A stretch of 64,000 nt of DNA. It comes from an uncultured Planctomycetaceae bacterium (GTDB lineage Bacteria > Planctomycetota > Planctomycetia > Pirellulales > PALSA-1355). Under the pieces are notes generated by a model. The model ran no database searches. It had not been told where the DNA came from and saw nothing but the letters and a program-made list of their open reading frames with translations. The stretch spans positions 58,032-122,031 of the forward strand of contig CAWBCP010000005.1 of NCBI GenBank assembly GCA_963787355.1, in the 5' to 3' direction. The position numbers and the translations under genes are program-made. This document shows positions 2,980 through 32,557 of the stretch, one piece after another; positions within the stretch are counted from its first letter, which is position 1, and each line of letters starts with the position of its first letter.

Positions 2980-4340
2980 ATGCTTTCGATTCTGGGACGG
3001 CGCCCCTCGCGGTTTTGCGACGGACACTCACGGCGGCATTTTCTGAAGATCGGCGGGCTGGCACTCGGCGGGCTGGCGCTGCCGGGGATTCTGCGGGCCG
3101 AAGAGAATTCGCCTACCACGCAAGGAAAGAATCTCTCGCACAAAGCCATCATCATGATCTATCTGTCCGGTGGTCCGTCGCACCAGGACATGTTCGACTT
3201 GAAGATGGACGCGCCGCTGGAGATTCGCGGATCGTTCAAGCCGATCCGGACCAACGTGCCGGGGATCCAGATCTGCGAGCACATGCCGCGGCTGGCGACG
3301 ATGATGGACAAGTTCGCCATCATTCGATCGTTGTACGGCTGCCCCGATCAGCACGCCTCGGACCTGTGCCTGAGCGGCTATCCGATCGGAGCCAGGGGGA
3401 ATCAGGACAATCATCCGTCGCTGGGCTCGGCGCTCTCCAAACTGCAAGGCCCGGTGGACCCGGCCGTGGCGCCGTTTGTGGGCCTGACGATCAAGACCGG
3501 GCACGCGCCGTATTCGAACCCCGGTATGCCGGGTTTCCTGGGAGCGGCCCATGCGCCGTTTCAGCCTGAGGGCGAAGGGATGGCCGACATGCGGCTCAAT
3601 GGCGTGACTCTCGATCAACTTCGCGATCGCCAAGCGCTGCTGTGCAATTTCGATGCATTTCGGCGGCAGATCGATACGCAGCCGGCCTATCGGGATGTCG
3701 ACGCGCTCACACAAAAGGCGTTCGACGTGCTGACGTCAAACAAGCTGGCCAAAGCCCTCGACCTGGAGCAGGAAGACCCGGCCGTGCGGGACCGCTATGG
3801 CCGCGGCAGCGCTGCCCCGGCATTCGGCGAAGACGCCGGTCCGCACTGGATGGATCAATTCCTGATGGCCCGGCGGCTGGTCGAGGCGGGCGTGCGCTGC
3901 GTGACCCTCTCGTTCGGCAGTTGGGACCGTCACGGCGGCGAATTTTGAGCGGTTGCCCGAGCAACTTGGAAAACTGGATCAAGCGATCACGGCACTGGTT
4001 GAAGACCTGCACGCGCGGCGGCCTGGACGAGGACGTGAGCGTGGTGGCCTGGGGCGAATTCGGACGCACCCCCCGGATCAACGCGGGCGGCGGTCGCGAT
4101 CACTGGCCGCAAGTGTCGTGCGCCCTATTGGCCGGCGGCGGGATGCGCATGGGCCAGGTTATCGGCTCCACGAACCGCCTCGGCGAAGTACCGCAAGACC
4201 GGCCCGTTCACTATCAAGACGTCTTCGCCACCCTCTACCGCCAACTCGGCATCGACGCGAATATCGCCACCATCCCCGACCACGCCGGCCGGCCGCAGTA
4301 CCTGCTGGACCGGCGCGAGCCGATCCGAGAGTTGATCTAG
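2980..4340 (+). pseudogene. DUF1501 domain protein (Tat signal RRHFLKIGGLALGGLA, sulfatase-like), interrupted by two +1 frameshifts
   Basis: N-terminal 322 aa in the 2980 frame ends ...SWDRHGGEF*. The conserved continuation [26 protein letters not shown] then [21 protein letters not shown]...GRDHWP is found in two other frames (shifts ~3945 and ~4025). Confidence 0.75.
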
Positions 4341-4570
4341 AGGTGGGGCTGGACGAGTTGCTCGTGGCGATTGGCGCCCCGCCCGAGGTGATGGTTCAAT
4401 GTGGCGGTCGATGTGACCGGATCACGATTTGCGGAAAGGGGGCGAATCTCAGAGTGCTCGCAGAGCGTTTGAGCGTTCGATATCTGATCGCGGATCGGGG
4501 AGCAAGAGATCGACGGCAGCATGTGACGCGGCAAAAACAGTCGTTCAAGAATCGCGCGGCACAAGATAGA

Positions 4571-18764: not shown

Positions 18765-20039
18765 GGCCCATCGTCCGCGGGCGAACGCTTCGAGGCCCTT
18801 GCGGAGTTGCCTTCTTGCAGTTCACTCCTGTCAGCAGCGCATTCCAACGCGGCCTATCTGACCGAGCGCAAGAGCCCGTATAAGGCGATTGTCGTGTTTT
18901 CGGGCGAGCACGAAGACGGCGGCCGGCAGGTGACCGAAGCAACCCTCAACGGGTTCCCCAGTGCGGAGATCGTGGACTGGATTCAGGAGGACCCGTACCG
19001 GTTCCTGATCGTGGCCGACAAATTCCAGACCGGCTATGACGAGCCGCTGCTGCATACGATGTATGTGGACAAGCAGCTGTCGGGCATCAAGGCGGTGCAG
19101 ACTCTCTCGCGGCTCGACCGGGCGCACCCGCAGAAGACCGACACGTTCGTGCTGGACTTCATGAACCACGCCGACACGATTACCGACGCGTTTGCCGGCT
19201 ACTACCGCACGACGGTGCTGAGCGAAGAGACCGATCCGAACAAGCTCCATGACCTGAAGGGCGCCCTGGATGGCTATCAGGTCTACGCGCCCCAGCAGGT
19301 GCGGGAGTTGGTCGAACTGTTTCTTGGCGGCTCCGAGCGCGACAGACTGGACCCGATCCTCGACGCCTGCGTAGCCCGCTATATCACCGACCTGGACGAG
19401 GACGGACAAGTCGACTTCAAGGGCAAGGCCAAGGCATTCGTGCGGACCTACGAATTCCTGGCATCGGTCCTGCCGTACACGAATCGGGCGTGGGAGGAGC
19501 TGTCCGTTTTCCTGAACTTCCTCATCCCCAAGCTGCCGGCCCCGGTTGAGGAAGACCTCTCGAAGGGGATCCTCGAAGCCATCGACATGGACAGCTACCG
19601 CAACGAGGTGCGGGAGACGCTGAAGCTGACCTTGGCCGACGAGGAAGGCGAGGTGGGGCCCGTGCCCACCAGTGGCGGCGGGCGTAAGTCCGAGCCGGAA
19701 CTCGATCGGCTGAGCAACATCATCAGGGCCTTTAACGACCAGTTCGGCAATATCGACTGGAAAGACGCCGACCGCATCCGCCAGGTGATCGCCGAAGAAA
19801 TCCCCGGCAAGGTCGCCGCCGACAGGGCGTACCAGAACGCCCTGAAGAACAGCGACAAGGCGGCGGCCCGGCTGGAACACGACCGGGCACTGCGGGACGT
19901 GGTTGTCAGCATGCTGCGCGACCACACCGAACTGTTCAAGCAATTCAGCGACAACCCCGGCTTCAAGAAGTGGCTGGCCGATACGATCTTTTCAGTGACC
20001 TACGACGACAGCGCGGCCACCGCTTTTGGGAACACATGA
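18765..20039 (+). pseudogene. hsdR: Type I restriction enzyme R subunit (HsdR) C-terminal fragment (~420 aa), lacking the N-terminal nuclease and helicase domain 1
   Basis: KAIVVFSGEHED...DPYRFLIVADKFQTGYDEPLLHTMYVDKQLSGIKAVQTLSRLDRAHP...FVLDFMN resembles the HsdR helicase C-terminal and EcoR124I-like C-terminal region. The reading frame runs straight on from the kinase stop codon and has no ATG. Confidence 0.6.
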
Positions 20040-21219: not shown

Positions 21220-21657
21220 CTGCCCCCATAACCGTCACAAGTTTCAGCCTTCTGCACTCGTCCGCGGCGGTGGTGAGGAGCTGGCCATGCAGTTCCTTGA
21301 CCACGCCAAACCGACTTTCAGGAAAAAAGTTTCTGCGAACCACCGAAACCTTTCCGGCGTCTAAGGTGTATAAGAGGGGTCGGGGCCGCGTGGGTGTCCG
21401 ATCGCTGTTTTGACGAGCTTTTACGAGTTGTTCCTTCCATGATGTTCTTACGGCCAAGACTGTTCCAAGAACGGATAGCCGGGAGTTATTGCGCGCAGCA
21501 CAAACGACAGCTGCAAGGTAATTCCCCCGCGCTACCGCTACGCTTGTGACGCTTGGCCTTTAGGTCTGCTGGCTGCCAAAGCCCGGTGTCACAAGGACAT
21601 CGGGCTTTTTTGTTGGCCTCATGTCGCGCGATAGCGGGAACCAAACAACAAACGAAT

Positions 21658-21729
21658 GGGTCGGTAGCTGAGACGGTTTAGCGGTGGCCTGAAAAGCCGC
21701 AGACGAGGATTCGAGCGCCTCCCGACCCA
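21658..21729 (+). tRNA. tRNA-Phe(GAA)
   Basis: Acceptor gggtcgg/ccgaccc; anticodon stem gtggc/gccgc, loop ctGAAaa; T-loop ttcgagc (A53:G61 mismatch). Confidence 0.7.
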
Positions 21730-21765
21730 CTGCGCTCAGCGTACGCGCTGACGGAAGACACACAC

Positions 21766-21838
21766 GGCTCGTTCGTCTATCGGTTCAGGATACTGCCCTT
21801 TCAAGGCGGAGAGGTGGGTTCGATTCCCACACGAGCTA
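21766..21838 (+). tRNA. tRNA-Glu(TTC)
   Basis: Acceptor ggctcgt/acgagct; anticodon loop ctTTCaa; T-arm gtggg-ttcgatt-cccac. Confidence 0.75.
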
Positions 21839-21857
21839 CTGCAGGGAGAAAACACAT

Positions 21858-21929
21858 CGGGAGGAAGAGGAACGGTGCCTCGCGTGCCTTGGGAGCACGA
21901 GATCGCGGGTTCGACTCCCGCCTTCCCGA
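21858..21929 (+). tRNA. tRNA-Pro(TGG)
   Basis: Acceptor cgggagg/cttcccg; D-stem gagg/cctc; anticodon stem cgtgc/gcacg, loop ctTGGga; T-arm gcggg-ttcgact-cccgc. Confidence 0.75.
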
Positions 21930-21930
21930 C

Positions 21931-22001
21931 TGTCCGGTGTTGTAACGGAAGCATAGCGATCTGATACGTCGCCGGCGGTGGTTCGACTCCACCTCGGACA
22001 A
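21931..22001 (+). tRNA. tRNA-Ile(GAT)-like (non-canonical D-arm)
   Basis: Acceptor tgtccgg/tcggaca; anticodon stem gcgat/gtcgc, loop ctGATac; T-arm ggtgg-ttcgact-ccacc; D-stem pairs poorly. The gene starts 1 nt after the previous tRNA. Confidence 0.5.
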
Positions 22002-22070
22002 CTGACCACGAGGAGAACTTCACATGATGCAGACCACGCCGACTCAAACGCATACGCCCACTCCACATTT

Positions 22071-22142
22071 GGGGTCGTGGCGTAACGGCAGCGCTTCCGC
22101 CTTTTAAGCGGGAAGGTAAGGGTTCGACTCCCTTCGGCCCCA
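22071..22142 (+). tRNA. tRNA-Lys(TTT)
   Basis: Acceptor ggggtcg/cggcccc; anticodon stem tccgc/gcggg, loop ctTTTaa; T-arm aaggg-ttcgact-ccctt. Confidence 0.7.
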
Positions 22143-22170
22143 CTGCGTTGGCTTTGGCCAGCGATCGCGG

Positions 22171-22244
22171 CGGCGCGTAGCTCAGTGGTTGAGAGCAGGT
22201 CTCTTATAAGGACCAGGTCGAGGGTTCGATTCCCTCCGCGCCGA
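22171..22244 (+). tRNA. tRNA-Ile(TAT) (unusual anticodon)
   Basis: Acceptor cggcgcg/cgcgccg; D-arm tagctcagtggttgagagc; anticodon stem ggtct/ggacc, loop ctTATaa; T-arm gaggg-ttcgatt-ccctc. Confidence 0.65.
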
Positions 22245-22286
22245 TGGTGCGCGCAGACACGACAACGAGAAGCAAAACACGAACAC

Positions 22287-22360
22287 GGGATCAAGGTGTT
22301 AGCGGCAGCATGCCTGGCTCTTAACCAGGTCGGTGAGGGTTCAAGTCCCTCTGATCCCAC
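22287..22360 (+). tRNA. tRNA-Lys(CTT)
   Basis: Acceptor gggatca/tgatccc; anticodon stem cctgg/ccagg, loop ctCTTaa; T-arm gaggg-ttcaagt-ccctc. Confidence 0.7.
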
Positions 22361-22371
22361 TTGAACGAAAG

Positions 22372-22455
22372 GCACTGGTCGTCCAGCGGCGAGGACTCCG
22401 CACCCGGGCACACCGTAGATCGGCGGCGACGTGGGTTCGAGTCCCACCCGGTGCT
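22372..22455 (+). tRNA. tRNA-like, type II length (84 nt), anticodon arm unresolved
   Basis: Acceptor gcactgg/ccggtgc; D-stem gtcc/ggac; T-arm gtggg-ttcgagt-cccac. The 34 nt between D and T arms do not fold into a canonical anticodon arm. Confidence 0.4.
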
Positions 22456-22487
22456 CTGATCTTTGACAATTCGACCAGCGATTCGAC

Positions 22488-22558
22488 GCGCCCATGATGT
22501 AGCGGTAGCCTGCTGCCTTGCCATGGCGGAAGTGCGGGTTCAACTCCCGCTGGGCGCT
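22488..22558 (+). tRNA. tRNA-Gly(GCC)
   Basis: Acceptor gcgccca/tgggcgc; anticodon stem ctgcc/ggcgg, loop ttGCCat; T-arm gcggg-ttcaact-cccgc. Confidence 0.65.
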
Positions 22559-22566
22559 TTTCGTTT

Positions 22567-22640
22567 CGGTGCGTGGGATAGCTTGGAAACCCGCGTGCTT
22601 CGGGAGCACGAGATCGGCGGTTCGAATCCGCCCGCCCCGA
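22567..22640 (+). tRNA. tRNA-Pro(CGG)
   Basis: Starts cggtg... like E. coli proK; anticodon stem cgtgc/gcacg, loop ttCGGga; T-arm ggcgg-ttcgaat-ccgcc; one acceptor mismatch. Confidence 0.7.
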
Positions 22641-22647
22641 CCTTTGC

Positions 22648-22721
22648 CAGGGTGTAGCGAAGCCTGGCATCGCGCAAGCTCGGGGAGCTTGAGATCGCAG
22701 GTTCAAATCCTGCCACCCTGA
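22648..22721 (+). tRNA. tRNA-Pro(GGG), with C at position 33
   Basis: Acceptor cagggtg/caccctg; D-stem gcga/tcgc; anticodon stem caagc/gcttg, loop tcGGGga; T-arm gcagg-ttcaaat-cctgc. Confidence 0.6.
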
Positions 22722-22728
22722 CTCATAT

Positions 22729-22803
22729 TGCGGTGGGGCCTGTGTTGGTACAGGCAGGCGCCTGTTAAGCGCCCCTTCGCAGGTTCGATTCCTGCCGCCG
22801 CAG
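22729..22803 (+). tRNA. tRNA-Asn(GTT)
   Basis: Acceptor tgcggtg/cgccgca; D-stem gcct/aggc; anticodon stem ggcgc/gcgcc, loop ctGTTaa; T-arm gcagg-ttcgatt-cctgc. Confidence 0.75.
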
Positions 22804-22823
22804 CTTTTTGCGAATGCAATACG

Positions 22824-22906
22824 GAAGGGCAAGCCAATGGGCGATGGCAGCTGTTTCGAAAACAGTCGAGCGATAAGCCTTGAGGGTTCGACTCCCTCTC
22901 CTTCCG
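22824..22906 (+). tRNA. tRNA-Ser(CGA), type II
   Basis: Acceptor ggaaggg/tccttcc; anticodon stem gctgt/acagt, loop ttCGAaa; long variable arm; T-arm gaggg-ttcgact-ccctc. Confidence 0.65.
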
Positions 22907-22910
22907 CTTC

Positions 22911-22982
22911 GTGCTCTTGGCCGATCGGCAAAGGCGTCAGCCTTCCAAGCTGAACAGGCGGGTTCGATTCCCGCAGAGCACT
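22911..22982 (+). tRNA. tRNA-Gly(TCC)
   Basis: Acceptor gtgctct/agagcac; anticodon stem tcagc/gctga, loop ctTCCaa; T-arm gcggg-ttcgatt-cccgc. Confidence 0.75.
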
Positions 22983-22995
22983 TTCGATCAATCAT

Positions 22996-23066
22996 TCGGG
23001 GATCGGCTAACGGTAGGCCGCCTGGCTTTGAATCAGGCTATGGAGGTTCGATTCCTTCTCCCCGAA
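22996..23066 (+). tRNA. tRNA-Gln(TTG)
   Basis: Acceptor tcgggga/tccccga; anticodon stem cctgg/tcagg, loop ctTTGaa; T-arm ggagg-ttcgatt-ccttc. Confidence 0.7.
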
Positions 23067-23082
23067 CTCCGCTGAAACACAT

Positions 23083-23157
23083 TCCGGGGTAGCTGCTGCT
23101 GGTAGTGGCGCCTGGCTCTGAACCAGGAGGTCGTTGGTTCGATTCCAACCCCCGGAA
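23083..23157 (+). tRNA. tRNA-Gln(CTG)
   Basis: Acceptor tccgggg/ccccgga; anticodon stem cctgg/ccagg, loop ctCTGaa; T-arm gttgg-ttcgatt-ccaac. Confidence 0.75.
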
Positions 23158-23176
23158 CTGAAACGGGAGCGACGGA

Positions 23177-23262
23177 CGCGAAACTCCGGCCGGATGAGGA
23201 GCCTGTCTTGAAAACAGGTGGCGGCCAAGCCGCTTGTGAGTTCGAGTCCGCACGCAGGCGGC
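23177..23262 (+). tRNA. tRNA-Ser(TGA)-like, degenerate (acceptor and T-stem do not pair)
   Basis: Clean anticodon arm cctgt-ctTGAaa-acagg and variable stem gcggc-caa-gccgc. The T-loop ttcgagt is flanked by the non-pairing gtgag/ccgca, and no complementary acceptor is found. Confidence 0.35.
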
Positions 23263-23281
23263 TTCCGCTCGCAAGACGATC

Positions 23282-23368
23282 GGGCTCATCGTCCAACAGG
23301 AAGACGCCAGCTCCGCACTGGCCCGTGTTCACTGTAGGACGCGGCGGGTGCAACTCCCGGTGAGTCCA
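23282..23368 (+). tRNA. tRNA-like pseudogene, paralog of the two tRNA-Ala genes (G3:U70 acceptor) with ~18-nt insertion
   Basis: Acceptor gggctca/tgagtcc is identical to tRNA-Ala(GGC) at 25451. The anticodon loop reads ctCCGca, there is extra sequence before the T-arm, and the T-loop is tgcaact (G at position 55). Confidence 0.4.
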
Positions 23369-23382
23369 CTCAAACAAAACAC

Positions 23383-23453
23383 AGTCCCGTGGTCCAACGG
23401 CACGACTTCTGGCTCACATCCAGACAACGATGGTTCAACTCCATCCGGGACTA
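23383..23453 (+). tRNA. tRNA-Val(CAC)
   Basis: Acceptor agtcccg/cgggact; anticodon stem tctgg/ccaga, loop ctCACat; T-arm gatgg-ttcaact-ccatc. Confidence 0.7.
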
Positions 23454-23459
23454 CTCGAT

Positions 23460-23536
23460 GCCCAGGTACGCCAATTGGCAGAGCGGCACGGCTAGACGAA
23501 CCCGCGCGGATGCCGGTTCGACTCCGGCCTTGGGCA
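23460..23536 (+). tRNA. tRNA-like (77 nt), anticodon arm unresolved (a ctagac motif suggests TAG)
   Basis: Acceptor gcccagg/cttgggc; T-arm gccgg-ttcgact-ccggc. The central region forms only a 4-bp stem with a 15-nt loop. Confidence 0.4.
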
Positions 23537-23545
23537 CTGGATGTG

Positions 23546-23908
23546 TTAGATGCTTGGCAGACAACTGCCGTACCGTTGCCAGGTCGGGTCTGCAACCTCT
23601 TCAAATTCGACTCGATAGTCTGGATGAGTACCCGTCAGCCTGGAAAGCACCTGAGATAAGTCTGCCGCATCCCCCAAATACACGTAGTACTCACGGATTC
23701 CGCGACTAGCAATTCGCATGACATAAACGGCCCAGCCGTGCCCGAGTTCGTCCCACAGCTTGATCAATGAATCTTCGACAGCATCGAGGCTCTGCGATTC
23801 GTCGGGATCCCAGAACGCTGTACCGGGATCGAGCTGACAATAGACACCGAACCATGCTAGAGCGCGGTAGCTCGTGTACTGGTGCCGAAGTGCGAAATCG
23901 ATCATCAA
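23546..23908 (-). CDS. hypothetical protein (120 aa) embedded in the tRNA array
   Basis: ATG-initiated ORF with protein-like composition and lower GC than flanks; no recognisable family. Confidence 0.45.
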   Translation of the reverse strand: MMIDFALRHQYTSYRALAWFGVYCQLDPGTAFWDPDESQSLDAVEDSLIKLWDELGHGWAVYVMRIASRGIREYYVYLGDAADLSQVLSRLTGTHPDYRVEFEEVADPTWQRYGSCLPSI

Positions 23909-24036
23909 TCAGAATCTGGGCCGATCGACCATCAATCTCCGAAATGCGATGTGACCAAGCCATAACGTGGATCTCACGACTGGGACCATCGGAATGCTCT
24001 CAACAGTATATACGCCCGTCATCGCAGCCAACAAGC

Positions 24037-24109
24037 GGCTCGGTAGGCAACGGCAGACCACTTTGGCTTAGACCCAGGGATGCTGTGGGTTCGAGTCCCA
24101 CCTGAGCCA
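24037..24109 (+). tRNA. tRNA with anticodon TAG (Leu-decoding) but type I architecture (73 nt, 5-nt variable loop)
   Basis: Acceptor ggctcgg/ctgagcc; anticodon stem tttgg/ccagg, loop ctTAGac; T-arm gtggg-ttcgagt-cccac. Confidence 0.6.
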
Positions 24110-24126
24110 CTTGAAACAAATCACTC

Positions 24127-24201
24127 GTCCTCGTGGAGCAGCCTGGAGTGCTCGCCAGCCTGTCACGGAGGAGATCACGGGTTCAAATCCCGTCGGGGAC
24201 G
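24127..24201 (+). tRNA. tRNA-Asp(GTC)
   Basis: Acceptor gtcctcg/cggggac; D-stem gagc/gctc; anticodon loop ctGTCac (stem has 2 mismatches); T-arm acggg-ttcaaat-cccgt. Confidence 0.65.
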
Positions 24202-24206
24202 CTTGC

Positions 24207-24280
24207 GGCACGGTACGCCAACTGGCTGAGCGGCGAAGCTCAAACCTTCGTGTCTGCGGGTTCGACTCCCGCCTGTGCCA
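24207..24280 (+). tRNA. tRNA with anticodon CAA (Leu-decoding) but type I architecture (74 nt)
   Basis: Acceptor ggcacgg/ctgtgcc; anticodon stem cgaag/cttcg, loop ctCAAac; T-arm gcggg-ttcgact-cccgc. Confidence 0.6.
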
Positions 24281-24286
24281 CTGATC

Positions 24287-24373
24287 GGGTTGTGCTCCTC
24301 GTGGCGGCCTGTAAAGCCGTCGTCACAAAACAAGCGAGGTGGGCGACGAGAGGTTCAATTCCTTCACAACCCA
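24287..24373 (+). tRNA. tRNA-Tyr(GTA), type II
   Basis: Acceptor gggttgt/acaaccc; anticodon stem cggc/gccg, loop ctGTAaa; long variable arm; T-arm gagag-gttcaatt-cc. Confidence 0.7.
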
Positions 24374-24383
24374 TTTTATTAAA

Positions 24384-24456
24384 GGCCCGTTCGTCTATCG
24401 GTTCAGGACACCAGCCTCTCAAGCTGGAAGGGCGGGTTCGATTCCCGCACGGGTCA
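24384..24456 (+). tRNA. tRNA-Glu(CTC)
   Basis: Acceptor ggcccgt/acgggtc; anticodon stem ccagc/gctgg, loop ctCTCaa; T-arm gcggg-ttcgatt-cccgc; paralog of the tRNA-Glu(TTC) at 21766. Confidence 0.75.
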
Positions 24457-24461
24457 CTCAT

Positions 24462-24544
24462 GGCCAAGTGGTGTAATTGGTAAACACGCGACGCTCAGAA
24501 CGTCGTGCCTTCATGGCGTGGGAGTTCGAGTCTCCCCTTGGTCA
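24462..24544 (+). tRNA. tRNA-Leu(CAG), type II
   Basis: Acceptor ggccaag/cttggtc; D-stem gtgt/acac; anticodon stem cgacg/cgtcg, loop ctCAGaa; 14-nt variable arm; T-arm gggag-ttcgagt-ctccc. Confidence 0.75.
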
Positions 24545-24652
24545 CTGAAATATTGGCAGGCAAGAACCTGTCGATTGACGCAGGCGAGCCAGTGCTCAGC
24601 TGGGCCTCATAAGCCCGGACCGTCGGGTGCGACACCCGAGCCTGCAACTTAC

Positions 24653-24728
24653 GGCCGGGTACGCAAACTGGTAAAGCGACGAGGTCGAGAGCCTCGTGAT
24701 TCTGTGAGTTCGACTCTCACCTCGGTCA
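24653..24728 (+). tRNA. tRNA with anticodon GAG (Leu-decoding), type I architecture (76 nt), C at position 33
   Basis: Acceptor ggccggg/ctcggtc; anticodon stem cgagg/cctcg, loop tcGAGag; T-arm gtgag-ttcgact-ctcac. Confidence 0.55.
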
Positions 24729-24735
24729 CTCAATC

Positions 24736-24808
24736 GATCCCGTGGTCCAACGGCTAAGACGCCTGGATGACACCCAGGAAAGAGATGGTTCAACTCCATC
24801 CGGGATCA
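24736..24808 (+). tRNA. tRNA-Val(GAC)
   Basis: Acceptor gatcccg/cgggatc; anticodon stem cctgg/ccagg, loop atGACac; T-arm gatgg-ttcaact-ccatc. Confidence 0.7.
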
Positions 24809-24901
24809 TTTTGAAAATCGGTCTGTAGGTGTTTTCGGCGGCACACCAGCAAGCGAGCACGGCTGCCAGGGCGGCAGCCGAGCGCAGTGCGGTAGTTCGC
24901 C

Positions 24902-25334
24902 CTACAGATTGGTGACTCCCGAACACACTAGCAGCAATGCGATGCCGAATATTCCAATTTGAATCAACACCGCGGTCCATTGTCGCGCGATCACGGCAAC
25001 ACTGAGGCCTGTGATCAGCGATACGGAATAAACGACAAGCAATCCCATGGCATCCGTCCAATCGTCCCCACTCAGAGTGATGATCGAACCCGATTGGCGC
25101 GAACAGAAACATGGCTGCCGCGAGCACCTGTAGTGAGGCGGCCACCACGATCGGAATCTCCTTCGGCCCTCGCCAAGCAGCCAACGCGAAGGCACCGCCA
25201 CACAGTATGGTGAGGTAGACAGCGCCGAAGCCAAGGCCGCGCCAGAATACCAGCGCAACGCATGTAAACGTAATGCATATGAGCAATCTGCCGAGACTGA
25301 ATTGAAACCAAGGGTGACTGGAAGACTCCTTCAT
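24902..25334 (-). CDS. small membrane protein (2-4 TM helices), frameshift near 25060; low GC
   Basis: ATG 25334 gives MKESSSHPWFQFSLGRLLICITFTCVALVFWRGLGFGAVYLTILCGGAFALAAW...; the hydrophobic C-terminal part (...LLVVYSVSLITGLSVAVIARQW...GIFGIALLLVCSGVTNL*) continues in another frame and ends at 24902. Confidence 0.4.
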
Positions 25335-25368
25335 GAAGGCATTGTAGTCAATTTCAAATCAAACAAAT

Positions 25369-25439
25369 GGGCTGCTCGTCCAACGGGAAGACGCCTGGCT
25401 TGCAACCAGGAAATCGGGGTTCGACTCCCCGGCGGTCCA
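25369..25439 (+). tRNA. tRNA-Ala(TGC)
   Basis: Acceptor gggctgc/gcggtcc with G3:U70; anticodon stem cctgg/ccagg, loop ctTGCaa; T-arm cgggg-ttcgact-ccccg. Confidence 0.7.
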
Positions 25440-25450
25440 CTGAACAAAAC

Positions 25451-25521
25451 GGGCTCATGGTCCAAAGGGAAGACATCAGGCTGGCAGTCTGAAGATCCGG
25501 GTTCAATTCCCGGTGAGTCCA
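25451..25521 (+). tRNA. tRNA-Ala(GGC)
   Basis: Acceptor gggctca/tgagtcc with G3:U70; anticodon stem tcagg/tctga, loop ctGGCag; T-arm ccggg-ttcaatt-cccgg. Confidence 0.7.
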
Positions 25522-25528
25522 CTGAAAC

Positions 25529-25615
25529 GGAAGGTAGCCGGATACGGTTGGCCGGGCCGCTCTGCTAAGGCGGTTCCCGCTCGTCGGGATGAGGGTTCGA
25601 ATCCCTTGCCTTCCG
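25529..25615 (+). tRNA. tRNA-Ser(GCT), type II
   Basis: Acceptor ggaaggt/gccttcc; anticodon stem ccgct/ggcgg, loop ctGCTaa; 17-nt variable arm; T-arm gaggg-ttcgaat-ccctt. Confidence 0.7.
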
Positions 25616-25633
25616 CTCGTGAACGATACGTGA

Positions 25634-25706
25634 GCCTCGATGGTGAAACGGACGATCACTCCTTGCTTCTAACAAGGCATTCCGGGTTCGAATCCTGGTC
25701 GGGGCA
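25634..25706 (+). tRNA. tRNA-Arg(TCT)
   Basis: Acceptor gcctcga/tcggggc; D-stem gtga/tcac; anticodon stem ccttg/caagg, loop ctTCTaa; T-arm ccggg-ttcgaat-cctgg. Confidence 0.75.
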
Positions 25707-25732
25707 TTTTTGAGGAATACGACAATATATAT

Positions 25733-25807
25733 GGCGTCCGTGGTGTAGCGGTTTCTGCACGTCTGGCTGTGAACCAGAAGGTGGCGGTTCAACTCCGCTC
25801 GGACACC
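25733..25807 (+). tRNA. tRNA-His(GTG) with G-1 (8-bp acceptor)
   Basis: 5' ggcgtccg / 3' cggacacc (one mismatch); anticodon stem tctgg/ccaga, loop ctGTGaa; T-arm ggcgg-ttcaact-ccgct. Confidence 0.65.
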
Positions 25808-25825
25808 CTGAAAGGAAGTGAAGCA

Positions 25826-26422
25826 ATGGTCGCAAAGGTACTGGAACATCCGACGCTGGTCTTGAACCGCAACTGGCAGCCGGTGAACGTGGCCACGGTG
25901 GCTCGGGCGCTGGTGCTGTTGTGGAACGAGTCGGCTCGCGTGGTGGACCCGGCGGACTACCGGCTCTACACCTGGGCCGATTGGTCGGAGCTGCGCCCGG
26001 GCGAAGGCGAGCAGTTCATCCAGGCCGTGCGGCTGCGGCTGCGCGTGCCCGAGGTGATCGTGCTGGCCGAGTACGACCGGCTGCCGACCGCCGCCGTGAG
26101 CTTCAGCCGCCGCAACGTATTCAAGCGGGACCATTGGGCCTGCCAGTACTGCGGCTGCCAGCCGGGCGGCGAAGAGTTGACGATCGACCACGTGATTCCG
26201 CGGTCGCAGGGTGGAACCTCGACTTGGGAGAACTGCGTGTTGGCGTGCATCGGCTGCAACAAGCGCAAGGCCGACCGCACGCCGCACCAGGCCGGCATGC
26301 GGCTCCGCAAGGTGCCGGTCCGGCCGACGTGGAAGCCGATCTACGCCCGCGACAGCGTGCGGATCGAAAGCTGGTCGAAGTTTATCAGCGAGACGTACTG
26401 GAACGTCCCGCTGGAGAAGTAA
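25826..26422 (+). CDS. HNH endonuclease
   Basis: ATG 25826 preceded by GGAAG; HNH motif ...DHWACQYCGCQ...LTIDHVIPRSQGG...ENCVLACIGCNKRK. Confidence 0.75.
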   Translation: MVAKVLEHPTLVLNRNWQPVNVATVARALVLLWNESARVVDPADYRLYTWADWSELRPGEGEQFIQAVRLRLRVPEVIVLAEYDRLPTAAVSFSRRNVFKRDHWACQYCGCQPGGEELTIDHVIPRSQGGTSTWENCVLACIGCNKRKADRTPHQAGMRLRKVPVRPTWKPIYARDSVRIESWSKFISETYWNVPLEK

Positions 26423-26477
26423 CTGAGTTGCCCGGCACAGCGGCACAAATCGCTGTGCCGGGCCTTTGGAGATACGG

Positions 26478-27021
26478 CATGCGAAAAATCAAGTTCACCT
26501 ACAGCAAGACCGACGCAGGCCGCAAGCACTACCTCAACGAGGATGACGTGCGGGTGTTGTTGTCGCGGCTGCCGGAGGAGCTCTGGGAAAAGCTGCAAGC
26601 GGTGCACTTCAACGATAGAGCGTGGGGCAGGCGATGCCTCGGCTACGTGACGAGGGGACACCGCGAGATCACGATTTGTGCTCTGCCAGGTCGGGTCAGC
26701 TTGTCGAGCTGCGTGACTCACCGCTCGATCAAACAGTATGGTGCGGTCCGCGGCCGACAGTGGCCAGAGACCGCGGTGCGCCGTTTCATGCTCTACGACG
26801 TGTTTTTGCATGAGCTGGGCCATTTGCAAGTGGTGCTGCCGAAGGCCGCGAGATTGGGACGCAAGTTTGCGAGCGAGACCAAGGCACAAGAGTTCGCCGA
26901 CTATTGGCGGGAACAACTTTGGCTGGATCGGCTCGACCATCCCGATCCAGTCCACAACGAGGCAGCTAACGAAGAACTGGAACGACTGAACCTCGATGCA
27001 GCAAACTGCCTCGTAACCTGA
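26478..27021 (+). CDS. hypothetical protein (~180 aa)
   Basis: ATG-initiated ORF MRKIKFTYSKTDAGRKHYLNEDDVRVLLSRLPEELWEK... directly downstream of the HNH gene; no family recognised. Confidence 0.45.
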
Positions 27022-27038
27022 GACGAAGTAACAAATAC

Positions 27039-27108
27039 ACGAGTGTGCTCCTGGGAGAGCAGTCAGTCTCCAAAGCTGACGGACGGGGTTCGACTCCTCG
27101 CGCTCGTG
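27039..27108 (+). tRNA. tRNA-Trp(CCA)
   Basis: Acceptor acgagtg/cgctcgt; anticodon stem tcagt/gctga, loop ctCCAaa; T-arm cgggg-ttcgact-cctcg. Confidence 0.6.
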
Positions 27109-27111
27109 CTT

Positions 27112-27185
27112 GCCGACGTGGCTCGAAACAGAAAGGCGCCTGTCTTGTAAACAGGTTGATGCTGGTGCGAATCCAGTCGTCGGCT
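27112..27185 (+). tRNA. tRNA-Thr(TGT), T-loop tgcgaat (G at position 55)
   Basis: Acceptor gccgacg/cgtcggc; anticodon stem cctgt/acagg, loop ctTGTaa; T-arm gctgg-tgcgaat-ccagt. Confidence 0.6.
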
Positions 27186-27198
27186 CTTGAGGATTTGA

Positions 27199-27271
27199 AT
27201 CCCGATGGTGTAGCGGATTTGCATCGGACCCTCCGAAGGTCCGGGCCCTGGTTCGAATCCAGGTCGGGATA
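27199..27271 (+). tRNA. tRNA-Arg(CCG)
   Basis: Acceptor atcccga/tcgggat; anticodon stem ggacc/ggtcc, loop ctCCGaa; T-arm cctgg-ttcgaat-ccagg. Confidence 0.7.
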
Positions 27272-27286
27272 CTTGCGAAGCAAAGC

Positions 27287-27359
27287 GTCTCGCGGGTGTG
27301 CCGGATGAGCACGGCAGTGTTCGAAACTGCAAGACGAGGTTCAATTCCTCGGCGAGGCA
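27287..27359 (+). tRNA. tRNA-Arg(TCG)
   Basis: Acceptor gtctcgc/gcgaggc; anticodon stem gcagt/actgc, loop gtTCGaa; T-arm cgagg-ttcaatt-cctcg. Confidence 0.6.
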
Positions 27360-27378
27360 CTGAAAGGCGACGAGTTGA

Positions 27379-28029
27379 ATGACGATGTTGCGAACAATCC
27401 TAACAGCACTGAGACGAGCTCTGTTTGGCCAGCCTGTGGCCGGCGGGGTGACGGCGAAGCCACCGTCGGCAGAGGCCGTCGCGTGTGCGGTCGTTCATTC
27501 GACGACCGCGGCGGATCGCAGCGAAGGGAGGCTTACCATGAACGCAGCCTATGACAAACTATGCGAACACCTGACCAACCAGAACGTCGGCTTTTGGTCG
27601 CGCAGCGAGGACCTGTCGATCTGCACGGACTTTCGGGGCGAGGTCGGCACGTACCGGATCTTCGCTCGGGTTGACGCTGACGACAGCTTGTTCCAGGTCT
27701 TCGGTCATTCGCCGGTTCGCGTTCCGCCAGGCTCGCGCCCGGCGATCGCCGAGGCCGTGGCGCGGATCAACTGCGGTCTGAAGGTCGGCAAGTTCGAGAT
27801 GGATTGTGACGAGGGCGAGCTGCGGTTTCAGGCGGCCCAGATTCTGCCCGACGACGATCTCGACGAGCAGACGATTCAGCGACTGATTGGTACGACGATG
27901 TCGATGTTGAACATTTACCTCCCGGCCATCCTGTCGGTCATCTACGGCAACGAACTGCCGAAGGATGCCGTCAGGCACGCAGAGCCCGGGCGGTATGTGT
28001 CCGACGAAAACGAGCGCGGTGAGGCCTGA
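27379..28029 (+). CDS. YbjN-domain protein (putative sensory-transduction regulator / T3SS-chaperone-like fold)
   Basis: The core from MNAAYDKLCEHLTNQNVGF...YRIFARVD...GKFEMDCDEGELRFQAAQIL fits the YbjN family. ATG 27379 adds a 53-aa extension; alternative start 27538. Confidence 0.55.
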   Translation: MTMLRTILTALRRALFGQPVAGGVTAKPPSAEAVACAVVHSTTAADRSEGRLTMNAAYDKLCEHLTNQNVGFWSRSEDLSICTDFRGEVGTYRIFARVDADDSLFQVFGHSPVRVPPGSRPAIAEAVARINCGLKVGKFEMDCDEGELRFQAAQILPDDDLDEQTIQRLIGTTMSMLNIYLPAILSVIYGNELPKDAVRHAEPGRYVSDENERGEA

Positions 28030-28043
28030 TCACCGCGCATTTG

Positions 28044-28115
28044 TCCTCGGGGTGTGCCGGATTCGCACGCGACCCTGCGAAGGTCGAGGACCAGGTTCAA
28101 TTCCTGGCGAGGACA
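28044..28115 (+). tRNA. tRNA-Arg(GCG)
   Basis: Acceptor gtcctcg/cgaggac; anticodon stem cgacc/ggtcg, loop ctGCGaa; T-arm ccagg-ttcaatt-cctgg; paralog of the Arg tRNAs at 27199 and 27287. Confidence 0.65.
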
Positions 28116-28457
28116 CTTGACGATGCTGCAAAGCTAATTGGAGAAATCGGTGCACAAGCTGCCCCGGACAAAGATGACCTTGGAGAAGAGAGTGGCCACC
28201 CTGCGCGATGCTAGCCAAGAGCGCAAGCGACACGAGACTTCTGAAGGCGGCAGAAAGAGTGCGTGACGCCAGAATCCAGGTTTTGCGAGCCACGATCGGC
28301 GAGATGCCGTCAGTCAAGCTTACGCCCCATCAACACAGGCGTATTGCGAAACTGGAAGGACAGATTGAGGTGCTTCGCGAAACGTTACCAATCGCAATCC
28401 TGGCAGAGTTTCGCGAAGAGCGACCGACAGAAATCGACGAATTCTAGCCTCGGCTCT

Positions 28458-28685
28458 ATGAAGGAGGTGCCTTATGTGCAGCAACGACTTCAACGACAGC
28501 GCGTTTTTTTCGAAACGATGAGCAAACGGCGGAAGGGCTTCCCATCGGAAACGAAAGTGAAACGCGGAGTCCGCAAGGTCCACGGCGACAAGCTCCTCGA
28601 AGAGAAGCTCGGCCGCAACGACCTGTGCCCGTGTGGCAGCGGAAAACGATTCAAGCAGTGCTGCCTTAAGTCAGGCCGCTTTTGA
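28458..28685 (+). CDS. SEC-C motif (SecA metal-binding-domain-like) small protein
   Basis: C-terminal [19 protein letters not shown]. The start is uncertain (28458, 28518, or the SD-preceded ATG at ~28474 in another frame that would join through a T7 homopolymer at ~28498). Confidence 0.5.
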
Positions 28686-28759
28686 TGGGGTCAACCGTGA
28701 CCACTACTTTTAGAGATTGAACAACTCGCGTCGCCCGCCAGTCCGGCGGGCGGCGCACT

Positions 28760-28831
28760 GACGCTGAAGCCAGACGGCATGGCAACTGCCTGCAAAGCAG
28801 TTCTTAGCGGGTTCGACTCCCGCCGGCGTCT
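28760..28831 (+). tRNA. tRNA-Cys(GCA)
   Basis: Acceptor gacgctg/cggcgtc; D-stem gcca/tggc; anticodon stem actgc/gcagt, loop ctGCAaa; T-arm gcggg-ttcgact-cccgc. Confidence 0.7.
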
Positions 28832-28923: not shown

Positions 28924-29949
28924 ATGAAATCGTTCGCTGCAGCCATTCTGATCGCAATGACGTTCGTGCGCGCGGCTGTTGCCGTGCAAATCCATGTGGG
29001 CGATATTGTCGCTCCTCAATTCGACAACGTTGGCACGATAGTTGTAGTTCACACTGACACGGGAAATCGAGAAGTCCTTTCTCACTATCCCGACGTTGGG
29101 CAGGGACCAGCAGAGTACCGACCGACGAGCATCGCGAGATTGCCGGAGGGAGATTTTCTTGTAACGGAGGCGTTTTTCAACCAAGCGCTTTATCGAATTA
29201 GTGCAACAACCGGCAATCGTACTCTCATCTCCGGGATCGCGGAAACGACTCGTGGATCCGGACCCATTGACCATCCTCAAACGGTGCTGTTTAGATCGTC
29301 GGGCGATGCGATCCTAACGAACTCGGCACATCTTAACTACAGCACCGGATTCGTTACTCGCGTGGATTTGACAACGGGAGACCGCACATTGATTTCCGGA
29401 TTGGGAGTGGGAAGCGGGCCGCAATTCGACTATCCCGCAGGTGGTGCAATTGACGCCGCTGGCAAGCTTATCGTTGCGGACAATGCATTACCGGCGATTT
29501 TTAGCGTAGACCTTACAACGGGCGCAAGAACTGTTATTTCCGGCCTGGGGCATGGCACCGGTCCGGCACTTCCAAACATCCAAGACCTTGTGATATTGCC
29601 CGGCGGCCAGATCATGACGGAAGGCAATCATCAGCTGCTTCGCATCGATCCCACAAGTGGGAATCGAACACTAATTTCAACGGCATCAAACGACTACGAG
29701 CGAATTGCACTTGGCGCGAACGGTAGCCTTCTTGCCTCTACGGTAGGAGCGATACTGTCAGTCGATCCCACAACCGGAATCGAAACCGTTGTCTCGGCGA
29801 ACGGGGTCAATAGTGGTCCGAATCTCTTCTGGGGAGATATGGTTGTCGTTCCGGAGCCGACCACTGGAATCCTTTTCGTGCTTGGGATATTTATTCTTGC
29901 GCTCAAACGGTCTGCACGGCTCGTACGTGAACCATCTGACATTGACTAA
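28924..29949 (+). CDS. PEP-CTERM-anchored secreted protein with ~7 imperfect 'TTG.RTLISG' repeats (beta-propeller-like); low GC (~50%)
   Basis: Signal peptide MKSFAAAILIAMTFVRAAVA; repeated (T/S)TG(N/D)RT(L/V)ISG(L/I)... units; C-terminal VVPEPTTGILFVLGIFILALKRSARL. Confidence 0.65.
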   Translation: MKSFAAAILIAMTFVRAAVAVQIHVGDIVAPQFDNVGTIVVVHTDTGNREVLSHYPDVGQGPAEYRPTSIARLPEGDFLVTEAFFNQALYRISATTGNRTLISGIAETTRGSGPIDHPQTVLFRSSGDAILTNSAHLNYSTGFVTRVDLTTGDRTLISGLGVGSGPQFDYPAGGAIDAAGKLIVADNALPAIFSVDLTTGARTVISGLGHGTGPALPNIQDLVILPGGQIMTEGNHQLLRIDPTSGNRTLISTASNDYERIALGANGSLLASTVGAILSVDPTTGIETVVSANGVNSGPNLFWGDMVVVPEPTTGILFVLGIFILALKRSARLVREPSDID

Positions 29950-30069: not shown

Positions 30070-30145
30070 GTAACCAACAGATGGTTAGCTCAGTGGGTAG
30101 AGCACCAGACTTTGCATCTGGCTGTCACGGGTTCGACTCCCGTAC
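30070..30145 (+). tRNA. tRNA-like remnant (Ala/Gln-type body; acceptor strands not complementary)
   Basis: D-arm tagctcagtgggtagagca, anticodon arm ccaga-ctTTGca-tctgg, T-arm acggg-ttcgact-cccgt. The 5' strand cagatgg cannot pair with the 3' strand accaaac. Confidence 0.35.
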
Positions 30146-30625
30146 CAAACGCGGCGAAAGCCGCCCGTGGGCGCCGGTACACGCCGTCCAAACGCCCGCG
30201 GGGGCGGGCAAACGCAGGTCTGCCGTTGGCACAGCGTTGAAAGACGCAGGCTCGCGCGGTGCGAGAGCGCCGTGACGAGTCACATGCTGGCGGCAACACA
30301 AGACGGTGCCCTGCAGTGTGCAGATACCGCCTGTGCGAGTTCTTGGCAACGACAAAACGACGCCGACGGCAATGCAAGAGCATGCTCACGCAACGCCATC
30401 GGCTGAGCCAAACTGGCGCCTTGGATAGTACAAGCTCAAGCGCACTCCGCATACGGATGTGGGACCGACGTTTCGCTTCGCCCCCAACGGCATTTTTCGA
30501 CACGTCTTGGCGGTTGAATGGCACGAGATCTTTATGCGGACAGGCGTGTCGTGTAGCCAAGCGGTCGAGTAGACTGTGGGTGCGCGTCGGTTCCTGCAGT
30601 AATTGGCCTCGCAGCGAGTGGTACC

Positions 30626-31444: not shown

Positions 31445-32557
31445 ATGAACATCTACATCTCCAAGACAGTCAAGATCCGCAGCTACGAAATGGGTCTGTA
31501 CTTCCGCGACGGCGAGTTCAAGGGCTTGCTGCGCGAAGGTCGGCACTGGTTCGTGGACCCGCTGGGCAAGATCAAGGTCGAGGTCGTCTCGCAGCGTCAG
31601 CCTTGGTTGCAGCACGAGAAGCTCGACGTGATCTCGCGCTCGGGTGCGCTCAAGGACCGCGCGGCGGTGCTGGACCTGAAGGACTACCAGCGGGCTTTGG
31701 TCTGGATCGATGGTCGCTTCAGCCACATCCTGCCGCCGGGCCTGTACGCCTACTGGACTGCTCTGCGCGACGTGAAGGTTGAGGTGGTCGATGCCCGCAA
31801 GGTGCGGTTCGAGCACCCGGACCTGAAGGTCATTGTGCAGTCGCCGCTTGTCGAGCGCGTGCTGGAGTTGGCGACGGTGCAGCCGTTCAACATGGGCGTG
31901 CTGTTCATCGACGGCGACTTCGTCGAGACGTTGCCGCCGGGCCGCTACGCCTTCTGGAAGAACATGGCGCAGGTCAAGTTCGTCCAGGAGGACTTGCGCG
32001 AGGCCATGTTCGACGTGGCCGGCCAGGACATCATGACGGCCGATAAGGTGACGCTGCGGATGAACGCGGTCGTCACATATCGCGTCGCCGATGCCCGCCT
32101 GGCGGTCAGCACGGTCGACGACGTGCGGCAGGCACTGTACCGCGAGGCGCAGTTGGCGCTGCGTGCGGTGGTGGGTGCCCGTGAGCTCGACACGTTCCTG
32201 ACGGAGAAGGACGGCGTGGCGAGCGAACTGGCCGACATGGTGCGTGCGCGGGCCAAGACCTTGGGCGTGGAGCTGATTGCCGTGGGTATCCGCGACATCA
32301 TCCTGCCGGGCGAGATGAAGGACCTGATGAACCGTGTCACGGAGGCCAAGAAGGCCGCCGAGGCCAACCTCATCGCTCGCCGCGAGGAGACGGCCGCCAT
32401 GCGCAGCCAGGCCAACACCGCCAAGCTGCTGGCCGACAACCCGACCCTGATGCGCCTGCGCGAGCTGGAGGTGCTGGAGAAGGTCGCTGCCAACAGCAAG
32501 CTCAACGTCGTGTTGGGCGAGAAGGGCCTGACGGATCGGGTGATGAACGTGTTGTAA
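31445..32557 (+). CDS. SPFH/Band-7 (stomatin/prohibitin-like, slipin) domain protein
   Basis: The C-terminal 250 aa carry the SPFH signature (TADKVTLRMNAVVTYRV...ALRAVVGARELDTFLTEKD...ELIAVGIRDIILPGEMKDLMNRVTEAKKAAEANLIARREE) and a coiled-coil tail. Confidence 0.7.
   Translation: MNIYISKTVKIRSYEMGLYFRDGEFKGLLREGRHWFVDPLGKIKVEVVSQRQPWLQHEKLDVISRSGALKDRAAVLDLKDYQRALVWIDGRFSHILPPGLYAYWTALRDVKVEVVDARKVRFEHPDLKVIVQSPLVERVLELATVQPFNMGVLFIDGDFVETLPPGRYAFWKNMAQVKFVQEDLREAMFDVAGQDIMTADKVTLRMNAVVTYRVADARLAVSTVDDVRQALYREAQLALRAVVGARELDTFLTEKDGVASELADMVRARAKTLGVELIAVGIRDIILPGEMKDLMNRVTEAKKAAEANLIARREETAAMRSQANTAKLLADNPTLMRLRELEVLEKVAANSKLNVVLGEKGLTDRVMNVL

Follow-up and report, generated by a model that had tools for sequence, protein, structure and literature searches.

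Long arrays of tRNA genes are known from several bacterial groups, and here we describe one from a 64,000-nucleotide stretch of DNA, referred to throughout as the window, that comes from an uncultured Planctomycetaceae bacterium of the order Pirellulales (NCBI assembly GCA_963787355.1, contig CAWBCP010000005.1, forward-strand positions 58,032 to 122,031); three genes of this array, which carry leucine anticodons on bodies with a short variable loop (type I), are our main subject. The long arrays (L-arrays) of Anabaena, Acidithiobacillus and mycobacteria comprise at least 20 co-oriented genes at more than two per kb, with supernumerary isodecoders, an adjacent HNH or homing endonuclease gene, and deviations in the D, anticodon and variable regions (PMC8421152, PMC4758250, PMC12803027). 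They have a sporadic distribution and move horizontally by way of plasmids, integrative elements and phages. The Anabaena array, which has a homing endonuclease gene beside it, is induced under translational stress and aids survival (Santamaria-Gomez et al., 2021; PMC8421152), and tRNA array units have been surveyed by Tran et al. (2015). Within the same phylum as our window, Kim et al. (2016) reported planctomycete 'degenerate tRNA gene clusters'; these are large, low-scoring clusters with one canonical tRNA-Ile(UAU), are present twice in some genomes, and are called rapidly evolving, degraded and weakly syntenic (PMC4807772). Rhodopirellula is among the genera reported to have them.

Type I tRNA-Leu genes also have described counterparts. 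Recent reviews hold that tRNA-Leu's long variable arm is kept everywhere except in animal mitochondria, where tRNA-Leu has no long arm and is read through A73 and A14 by a leucyl-tRNA synthetase (LeuRS) of bacterial type (PMC9976931). In Streptomyces coelicolor, a type I tRNA-Leu(CAA) is leucylated by the organism's own LeuRS (Fan et al., 2019; PMC6614811). Phages supply further examples: the T5-group tRNAL2 (AJ604531.1) measures 77 nt including CCA, and its record notes a CUA derivative that is effective as an amber suppressor; gene 9 of mycobacteriophage Bxz2 is a tRNA-Leu(CAG) of 74-75 nt; and Acinetobacter phage Aci05 has a tRNA-Leu(UAG) annotated at 77 nt. The kind of gene is already known, and the member described here and its conserved peculiarities are new within the literature searched.

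The array occupies positions 21658..28831 of the window on the + strand and contains 35 tRNA genes called by ARAGORN, all on the + strand, together with several uncalled or decayed genes and a few interrupting open reading frames (ORFs). With 35 genes in 7.2 kb it lies above the L-array thresholds of at least 20 co-oriented genes and at least two per kb. The Rfam tRNA model (RF00005, gathering score 29 bits; E-values computed for the 9-kb region) gives 30 matches at the gathering score and a few more at a relaxed threshold; a relaxed-threshold ARAGORN run allowing introns returned mostly spurious calls. As in the clusters of Kim et al., low-scoring members accompany a canonical Ile(UAU): the gene at 22171..22244 (+) is fully canonical, has the top tRNA score of the window (70.4 bits) and is present in 23 arrays, whereas several members score below 40 bits or remain uncalled; the initial annotation had already recognized this Ile-type gene.

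The three short leucine genes are a tRNA-Leu(UAG) at 24037..24110 (+; 74 nt, 38.8 Rfam bits) with a weak 2-bp D stem and A73; a tRNA-Leu(CAA) at 24207..24281 (+; 75 nt, 47.6 bits) with a leucine-like D arm that has a 3-bp stem and A14 A15..G18G19..A20a, and with U48 and A73; and a tRNA-Leu(GAG) at 24653..24729 (+; 77 nt, 41.3 bits) with the anticodon loop UCGAGAG, in which position 33 is C. Their Rfam E-values range from 1.7e-5 to 6e-8, and ARAGORN folds each into a cloverleaf with a 7-nt anticodon loop. Positions 44-48 comprise 6, 5 and 7 nt in the genes at 24037, 24207 and 24653, respectively, so that none has the stem-bearing variable arm of more than 10 nt that defines canonical type II tRNA-Leu, and all three combine a leucine anticodon with a type I body. 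The sole long-arm leucine gene of the array is the type II tRNA-Leu(CAG) at 24462..24545 (+; 84 nt, 58.0 bits), which has a 3-bp variable stem. This arrangement agrees with the initial annotation, including its type II Leu(CAG), except that the short genes measure 74-77 nt by ARAGORN and not about 73-76 nt.

The relatives of the array were reached through the HNH endonuclease gene at 25826-26422 (+), which lies between tRNA-His and tRNA-Trp and serves as a marker of the array family. The encoded protein is unusually conserved: of more than 7,900 homologues, the top 120 are 77-98% identical to it, and the named ones among these belong to Pirellulales or Planctomycetota. An exact-sequence lookup of the protein returned no record. 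We fetched 80 genome loci around HNH homologues and scanned them for tRNAs (L-numbers below denote loci or contigs). The same ordered array was found in about 60 of the 80. Its slots run Phe-Glu-Pro-Ile-Lys-Ile(UAU)-Lys-Thr-Gly-Pro-Pro-Asn-Ser-Gly-Gln-Gln-Ser-Val-Leu(UAA)-Leu(UAG)-Asp-Leu(CAA), followed by Tyr-Glu-Leu(CAG)-Met-Leu(GAG)-Val-Thr-Ala-Ala-Ser-Arg-His-[HNH]-Trp-Thr-Arg-Arg-Arg-Cys; the order of these roughly 40 slots is kept, and the array covers nearly all amino acids. Array loci include long-read contigs of 7-8 Mb (up to 8.3 Mb) that are labeled as chromosomes. Downstream of the array, a gene for an SPFH/Band 7 protein (31445..32557, +) is a conserved neighbor in 33 loci, mostly at 74-94% amino acid identity, and the upstream flank holds no conserved genes across the loci compared. 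Some genomes have two arrays; L016 and L031, for instance, lie on one contig.

Because the gene order is kept, the contigs are of chromosome size and the SPFH neighbor is shared, the array is chromosomal and largely syntenic in Pirellulales, and is not a sporadic mobile insertion. In this it differs from the L-arrays, whose sporadic, horizontally spread distribution is not seen in a family that keeps both order and SPFH gene in 33 loci. It likewise departs from the weakly syntenic clusters of Kim et al., since order, HNH gene and odd sequence characters are kept in about 60 loci. The label 'mobile' given to the array in the initial annotation is thus right only in part; similar short leucine tRNAs do occur in phages. 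One contig classified as viral in IMG/VR (L084, IMGVR_UViG_3300007072_000340; 94 kb, GC 0.62) carries 25 tRNAs in the order of the Pirellulales array, short leucine genes included, and is either a prophage-borne array copy or a misclassified chromosome fragment.

The short arm is a property of the slots across the whole family. The Leu(UAA), Leu(UAG), Leu(CAA) and Leu(GAG) genes of the arrays measure 73-80 nt, two mis-sized calls excepted, and the variable region of type I array genes spans 5-10 nt across orthologues. Of 51 Leu(cag) calls, 46 are 83-86 nt long, the length of the gene in the Leu(CAG) slot, and the remaining five, which are shorter, are short-arm bodies of other slots, a tRNA-like element at the end of the array (see below), or an arm deletion in L069; four of the five leucine slots are thus type I, all but CAG. 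In L069 the Leu(CAG) gene, type II everywhere else, is 75 nt long and has TTGT in place of its variable arm, an independent and recent conversion to type I. Outside the array, L018 and L061 have canonical genes of 84 nt for Leu(CAA) and Leu(UAG).

To assess constraint on the three genes, orthologues were compared against the type I cloverleaf with 500 shuffles and with a control in which the 3' pairing partners were slid. Among 46 Leu(CAA) sequences 98.6% of cells are paired and nine pairs show double changes; the corresponding values are 99.5% and 11 pairs for Leu(GAG) (38 sequences) and 97.5% and six pairs for Leu(UAG) (20 sequences). None of the 500 shuffles matched the observed values in any of the three families, whether for cells paired, pairs or cells with double changes, or covariation score, and pairing fell to 21-57% in the slid controls. 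Anticodons are invariant within each orthologous family. The tRNAs of the window are identical to their orthologues at a per-locus mean of 0.78-0.96, with individual leucine genes at 0.76-0.96, so that the short genes are conserved to the same degree as the array average; the HNH gene next to them has a lower identity at third codon positions, 0.68-0.91. Against L001, the closest relative among the loci fetched and our reference for slot-by-slot comparison, identity is 92-100% for 29 genes, all but Pro(UGG), Pro(CGG) and Trp among the 32 shared as far as Arg(UCG), and 47-100% for the short spacers. The broken helices and loops, unconstrained across orthologues, that mark pseudogenes are not found at 24037, 24207 or 24653. 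These three are genuine tRNA genes kept by selection, and the suspicion that they are decaying oddities does not hold against such strong cloverleaf covariation and an identity above that of the HNH third positions. Leu(UAG) is the weakest case among the three families.

The sequence of the short bodies argues for leucine identity. U8, A14, G18G19, U48, T54 and C56 are invariant in the three families, and A15 is invariant in Leu(CAA) and Leu(GAG). A20a occurs in 43/46 (CAA), 38/38 (GAG) and 19/20 (UAG) sequences, and A73 in 45/46, 38/38 and 20/20, or 103/104 overall. The leucine-type recognition set of A73, U8:A14, the G18G19/T-loop elbow, A20a and A15:U48 is thereby present, with the exception of position 15, which varies in Leu(UAG). 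These positions are the determinants of E. coli LeuRS, a set from which the long arm is explicitly excluded (PMC9976931). As drawn by ARAGORN, the D arm is also laid out as in the type II tRNA-Leu of E. coli and of the host, with a 3-bp stem and an 11-nt loop. Ranking the D arms by their similarity to those of other array and host tRNAs failed to separate isotypes, in particular for Leu(UAG), and was left unused. The bodies themselves are confined to leucine: TACGC.AA bodies carry leucine anticodons in 102 of 106 calls and TAGGCAA bodies in 28 of 30, and the six that make up the difference between 130 and 136 are over-long ARAGORN calls of 93-97 nt. Where anticodons have switched they stay within leucine (UAG to CAG twice, UAG to CAA, and CAA to CAG), and G3:U70 is absent from the short bodies.

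The same architecture recurs outside the order. A D-arm pattern scan of viral contigs combined with ARAGORN recovered Leu(UAG/CAA/UAA/GAG) genes of 75-77 nt in phage contigs of 38-57% GC, and one viral contig, L082, carries a short Leu(GAG) whose loop is likewise UCGAGAG. The T5-group tRNAL2, the Bxz2 gene and those of the viral contigs share with the array genes a 7-bp acceptor, U8 A9, a 3-bp D stem, an 11-nt D loop with G18G19, a 4-5 nt variable loop and A73, and the Bxz2 tRNA-Leu has the same 5' end, GGCTCGGTAGGCAA, as the Leu(UAG) of the window. They differ in being phage-borne, in that some encode CCA, in a GC content of 38-45%, and in sequence, identity being only about 75-79% along parts of the gene. 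When plasmids were searched with Leu(CAA), nothing matched. The S. coelicolor gene, compared by description, is alike in its 5-nt variable loop, its retained U8:A14 and the presence of type II tRNA-Leu alongside (PMC6614811); it is, however, a single, stand-alone gene for which charging has been demonstrated, whereas in Pirellulales four of the five leucine slots of an array are type I, one of them with a fixed C33. Mitochondrial tRNA-Leu is organellar and structurally relaxed, while the array tRNAs keep the full elbow (G18G19, T54, C56).

The short leucine genes are not the only members with unusual characters. U33 is near-universal in working tRNAs. In the array, C33 is found in the Leu(GAG) of 41/41 calls (38/38 aligned orthologues) and in Pro(GGG) (14/15), Glu(CUC) (32/41), Thr(CGU) (23/35), Ala(GGC) (13/26) and Val(UAC) (16/35); it does not occur in Lys, Ile, Asn, Trp, Cys, Phe or the remaining type I Leu families, and a purine stands at position 33 in only about six of some 1,600 array tRNA genes. 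G55, seen as TGC in the T-loop, occurs in Thr(UGU) (34/38), in genes with a CAU anticodon (11/22) and in orthologues of the Ala(CGC) slot (4/6). In the window, as the initial annotation had pointed out, C33 is present in tRNA-Pro(GGG) at 22648..22722 (+; called by ARAGORN, loop TCGGGGA) and in Leu(GAG) at 24653 (TCGAGAG), and G55 in tRNA-Thr(UGU) at 27112..27186 (+; ARAGORN, T-loop TGCGAAT) and at 23282 (TGCAACT). Such departures could have been taken for random oddities, but they recur family by family and are not noise: Leu(GAG) and Pro(GGG) have C33 as a fixed family character, and for Thr(UGU), Ala(CGC) and the CAU tRNA the fixed character is G55. The main text and supplement S2 of Kim et al., by keyword, do not mention short-arm Leu, C33 or G55 (PMC4807772). 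The gene at 23282..23369 (+; 88 nt) is of Ala(CGC) type, with G3:U70, C33, G55 and a 16-nt insertion after the anticodon loop, and has no counterpart in L001; ARAGORN labels it Arg(ccg), an assignment we rejected since its body aligns with orthologues of the Ala(CGC) slot and has G3:U70.

A tRNA with a CAU anticodon, said to be missing from the array, is in fact present. The gene, at 24579..24648 (+), is 70 nt long and tRNA-like, with the loop CTCATAA, a C1xA72 mismatch, a 4-bp D stem closing a 4-nt loop, and the T-loop TGCGACA (G55). It goes uncalled here by both ARAGORN and Rfam, apart from a weak Rfam tRNA-like match at 24581-24649, and it aligns base for base with genes of the same slot that ARAGORN calls tRNA-Met(cat) in 11 related loci. 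The fold comprises 21 pairs, eight of which show compensatory changes among 13 sequences. The 1:72 pair is always mismatched in this family (C.A here); bacterial initiator tRNAs also carry a mismatched 1:72 pair. Other arrays hold another CAU family, whose T-loop is the normal TTC; both families occur together in three loci, and a Met(cat) call of either type was made in 19.

From these data we propose that the three short genes probably encode functional spare type I leucine isoacceptors of a chromosomal long tRNA array, possibly as part of a backup pool. They would combine leucine-type acceptor, D and T architecture with a variable arm cut to 5-7 nt; the host LeuRS would charge them with leucine, and they would read UUG, CUN and CUY codons beside the canonical long-arm tRNA-Leu genes that such genomes have outside the array. 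The most likely mechanism is that spare isoacceptors decode leucine in the ordinary way. More speculatively, the whole array may form an alternative tRNA pool for times when translational stress or tRNA-targeting nucleases impair the housekeeping pool, and its departures from universal tRNA features would then help it to escape such nucleases. Several observations weigh against this interpretation. The E. coli LeuRS and one Streptomyces LeuRS reject the type I tRNA-Leu of S. coelicolor (PMC6614811), so arm loss is not automatically tolerated; LeuRS specificity varies, and charging of the short tRNAs depends on the enzyme of the Pirellulales. Kim et al. (2016) judged planctomycete clusters degraded and probably dispensable (PMC4807772), and four to six members of the present array are broken. 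A promoter scan of the array found no signal exceeding chance. A fixed C33 could mean a non-decoding role, and the backup pool is a speculative analogy with the Anabaena array and phage tRNAs. Finally, the Leu(UAG) family has a D stem of only 2 bp with a C.A mismatch and a variable position 15, and RNAalifold favors a partly different fold of its D region; the D stem is invariant in 20 sequences and so gives no covariation signal. We set the alternative fold aside, as the cloverleaf fits 97.5% of cells.

The broken members and the degenerate look of planctomycete clusters, with their low Cove scores (PMC4807772), are what would be expected if the short genes were decaying pseudogenes of a horizontally acquired, dispensable cluster and the short arms, C33 and G55 accumulated damage. 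Four slots broken relative to L001, ORFs inserted into the array, and the 39-48 Rfam bits of the three leucine genes, as against 52-70 for most other array tRNAs, point the same way. Damage of this kind should not, however, be shared by 20-46 distinct orthologues whose stems change in a compensatory way and whose tertiary positions are invariant, nor leave position 33 as C or U with a purine in 6 of ~1,600 genes, nor be conserved above the third codon positions of the adjacent HNH gene, and we regard decay as an improbable account. It is more improbable still that the short arms and odd loop positions are artefacts of alternative folding or assembly indels. The RNAalifold result for the D region of Leu(UAG) is the one observation in favor of this; covariation sets the anticodon stems and 7-nt loops, and dozens of assemblies made independently, 7-8 Mb long-read chromosomes among them, show identical architecture. 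Because of this recurrence and covariation, fold artefact and indel error are excluded, and we give the explanation practically no credence.

The initial annotation raised another possibility, that the short tRNAs are mis-charged or identity-switched and read leucine codons with another amino acid. They do lack the long arm that is the hallmark of bacterial tRNA-Leu, and some LeuRS enzymes reject type I tRNA-Leu (PMC6614811). Since the positions read by LeuRS (A73, U8:A14, G18G19, A20a, U48) are kept and the bodies are limited to leucine anticodons (130/136 calls), with changes confined to the leucine box, with no G3:U70 and with no other foreign identity set recognizable by established identity rules, and since ambiguous decoding of three leucine codon families across an order would presumably be strongly deleterious, we consider mis-charging very improbable. 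A non-decoding role, in which conserved tRNA-shaped RNAs act as toxin decoys or sponges, as regulators, or as processing punctuation of an operon, is unlikely but deserves more weight. The fixed departures from near-universal positions (C33, G55), the CAU tRNA with its minimal D arm, and the poor expression of long arrays in the few cases studied (PMC8421152) are in its favor, as is a tRNA-like element at 30082 whose hypervariable anticodon loop cannot decode. That same element also provides the contrast: the clear non-decoder has a hypervariable loop, whereas the tRNA families have invariant anticodons and represent nearly all amino acids in a fixed order, as selection for decoding predicts. 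Moreover, the type I tRNA-Leu of phage T5 and of S. coelicolor work in translation or charging (PMC6614811 for S. coelicolor).

The array is an order-wide bacterial gene family that breaks the long-arm and U33 rules under clear purifying selection. It is a natural test bed for how LeuRS works without the arm, for the effect of C33 on decoding and for the purpose of long cryptic tRNA arrays, and the view of planctomycete tRNA clusters as merely degrading imports is corrected. There is a practical consequence for annotation: some conserved members, among them the CAU tRNA and the Ala(CGC) derivative, are overlooked or given the wrong label by ARAGORN and Rfam. We also advance, as a tentative idea and one we hold to be unlikely, that the array is a vertically kept, near-complete 'shadow' tRNA set selected to differ where tRNA-targeting enzymes read; the differences in question would be the four arm-less leucine species, C33 as a fixed base of several families, G55, and the CAU tRNA with its minimal D arm and 1:72 mismatch. 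Phage tRNAs have been proposed to evade anticodon nucleases through loop changes (PMC10264068). If such a set exists, protein synthesis could go on after the normal pool has been disabled by toxins, phage-triggered nucleases or antibiotics. The array would then be the chromosomal equivalent of the anti-defence tRNAs of phages, and would prove from nature that bacterial ribosomes work with C33 and with arm-less tRNA-Leu.

Decay is evident elsewhere in this copy of the array, in keeping with the initial suggestion that some members may be non-functional. Four slots have decayed relative to L001. The tRNA-Thr(CGU) at 22372..22456 (+; approximate ends) has a 12-nt insertion in its anticodon loop, and the tRNA-Ser(UGA) at 23178..23270 (+; approximate ends) a 7-nt insertion in its T arm. 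In the type I tRNA-Leu(UAA) at 23460..23537 (+) the loop CTTAAAC has become the 10-nt CTAGACGAAC (aligned to L001 7899-7974). The fourth, tRNA-Thr(GGU), survives as a 5' remnant at 24820..24848 (+), its 3' half replaced by the insertion that carries the ORF at 24726-25334 (-). These four and the Ala(CGC)-type gene at 23282-23369 have the broken features of pseudogenes. Because four slots have decayed, individual members of the array are expendable, which fits a supernumerary set. An aberrant GUA element in the Tyr slot (24287..24372, +), tRNA-like and without a normal D arm, is aberrant in L001 too, where the slot is 87% identical.

ORFs within the array include one encoding a DUF695 protein (23546-23908, -), the unannotated ORF at 24726-25334 (-), one with an HExxH motif (26479-27021) and a YbjN-like one (27379-28029). 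The ORFs at 23546-23908, 24726-25334, 26479-27021 and 28924-29949, the last of them just past the array, are insertions, missing in L001 and mostly missing in other arrays; because of this the array acts as a landing site for small cargo genes. Of the HNH protein, only a generic IscB/Cas9/PtuB-like HNH domain was recognized, all matches being below the family cut-offs, and the N-terminal 100 residues had no domain match. The HNH gene is also found without tRNAs in about 10 of the 80 loci; within arrays it always lies between tRNA-His and tRNA-Trp.

Past the Cys end of the array lies the tRNA-like element at 30082..30147 (+), which has a conserved D arm, anticodon stem and T arm, an acceptor of 3-4 bp and a hypervariable 7-nt loop. 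Its anticodon loop differs in almost every genome, and ARAGORN assigns a different isotype each time. The element lies about 100-230 nt from tRNA-Cys in relatives and 1.25 kb here owing to an inserted ORF. Rather than decode, it may act as a processing or terminal structure. We rejected its reading as a truncated tRNA left at an integration site, as it is kept near the Cys end in 20 other loci (L002, L009, L011, L012, L016, L020, L021, L023-L026, L029-L031, L035, L044, L055, L060, L069 and L080).

The window has a GC content of 55-67% and a gene content typical of Planctomycetota, with DUF1501, PEP-CTERM, FGE-sulfatase and WD40 proteins. A promoter and terminator scan was at chance level apart from a strong terminator at 21578-21608, just 5' of the array. 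About 1.6 kb 5' of the array, the ORF at 18807-20039 (+) matches only the C-terminal domain 3 of the type I restriction protein HsdR and is probably a fragment. Further out, an Acido-Lenti-1 RNA match at 59048-59101 (-) is marginal, at 37.4 bits against a gathering score of 37, and an Upf1-like SF1 helicase gene (AAA_11/AAA_12) at 3953-6541 (+) matches MkoA of the Mokosh defence system in PADLOC (E = 1e-92).

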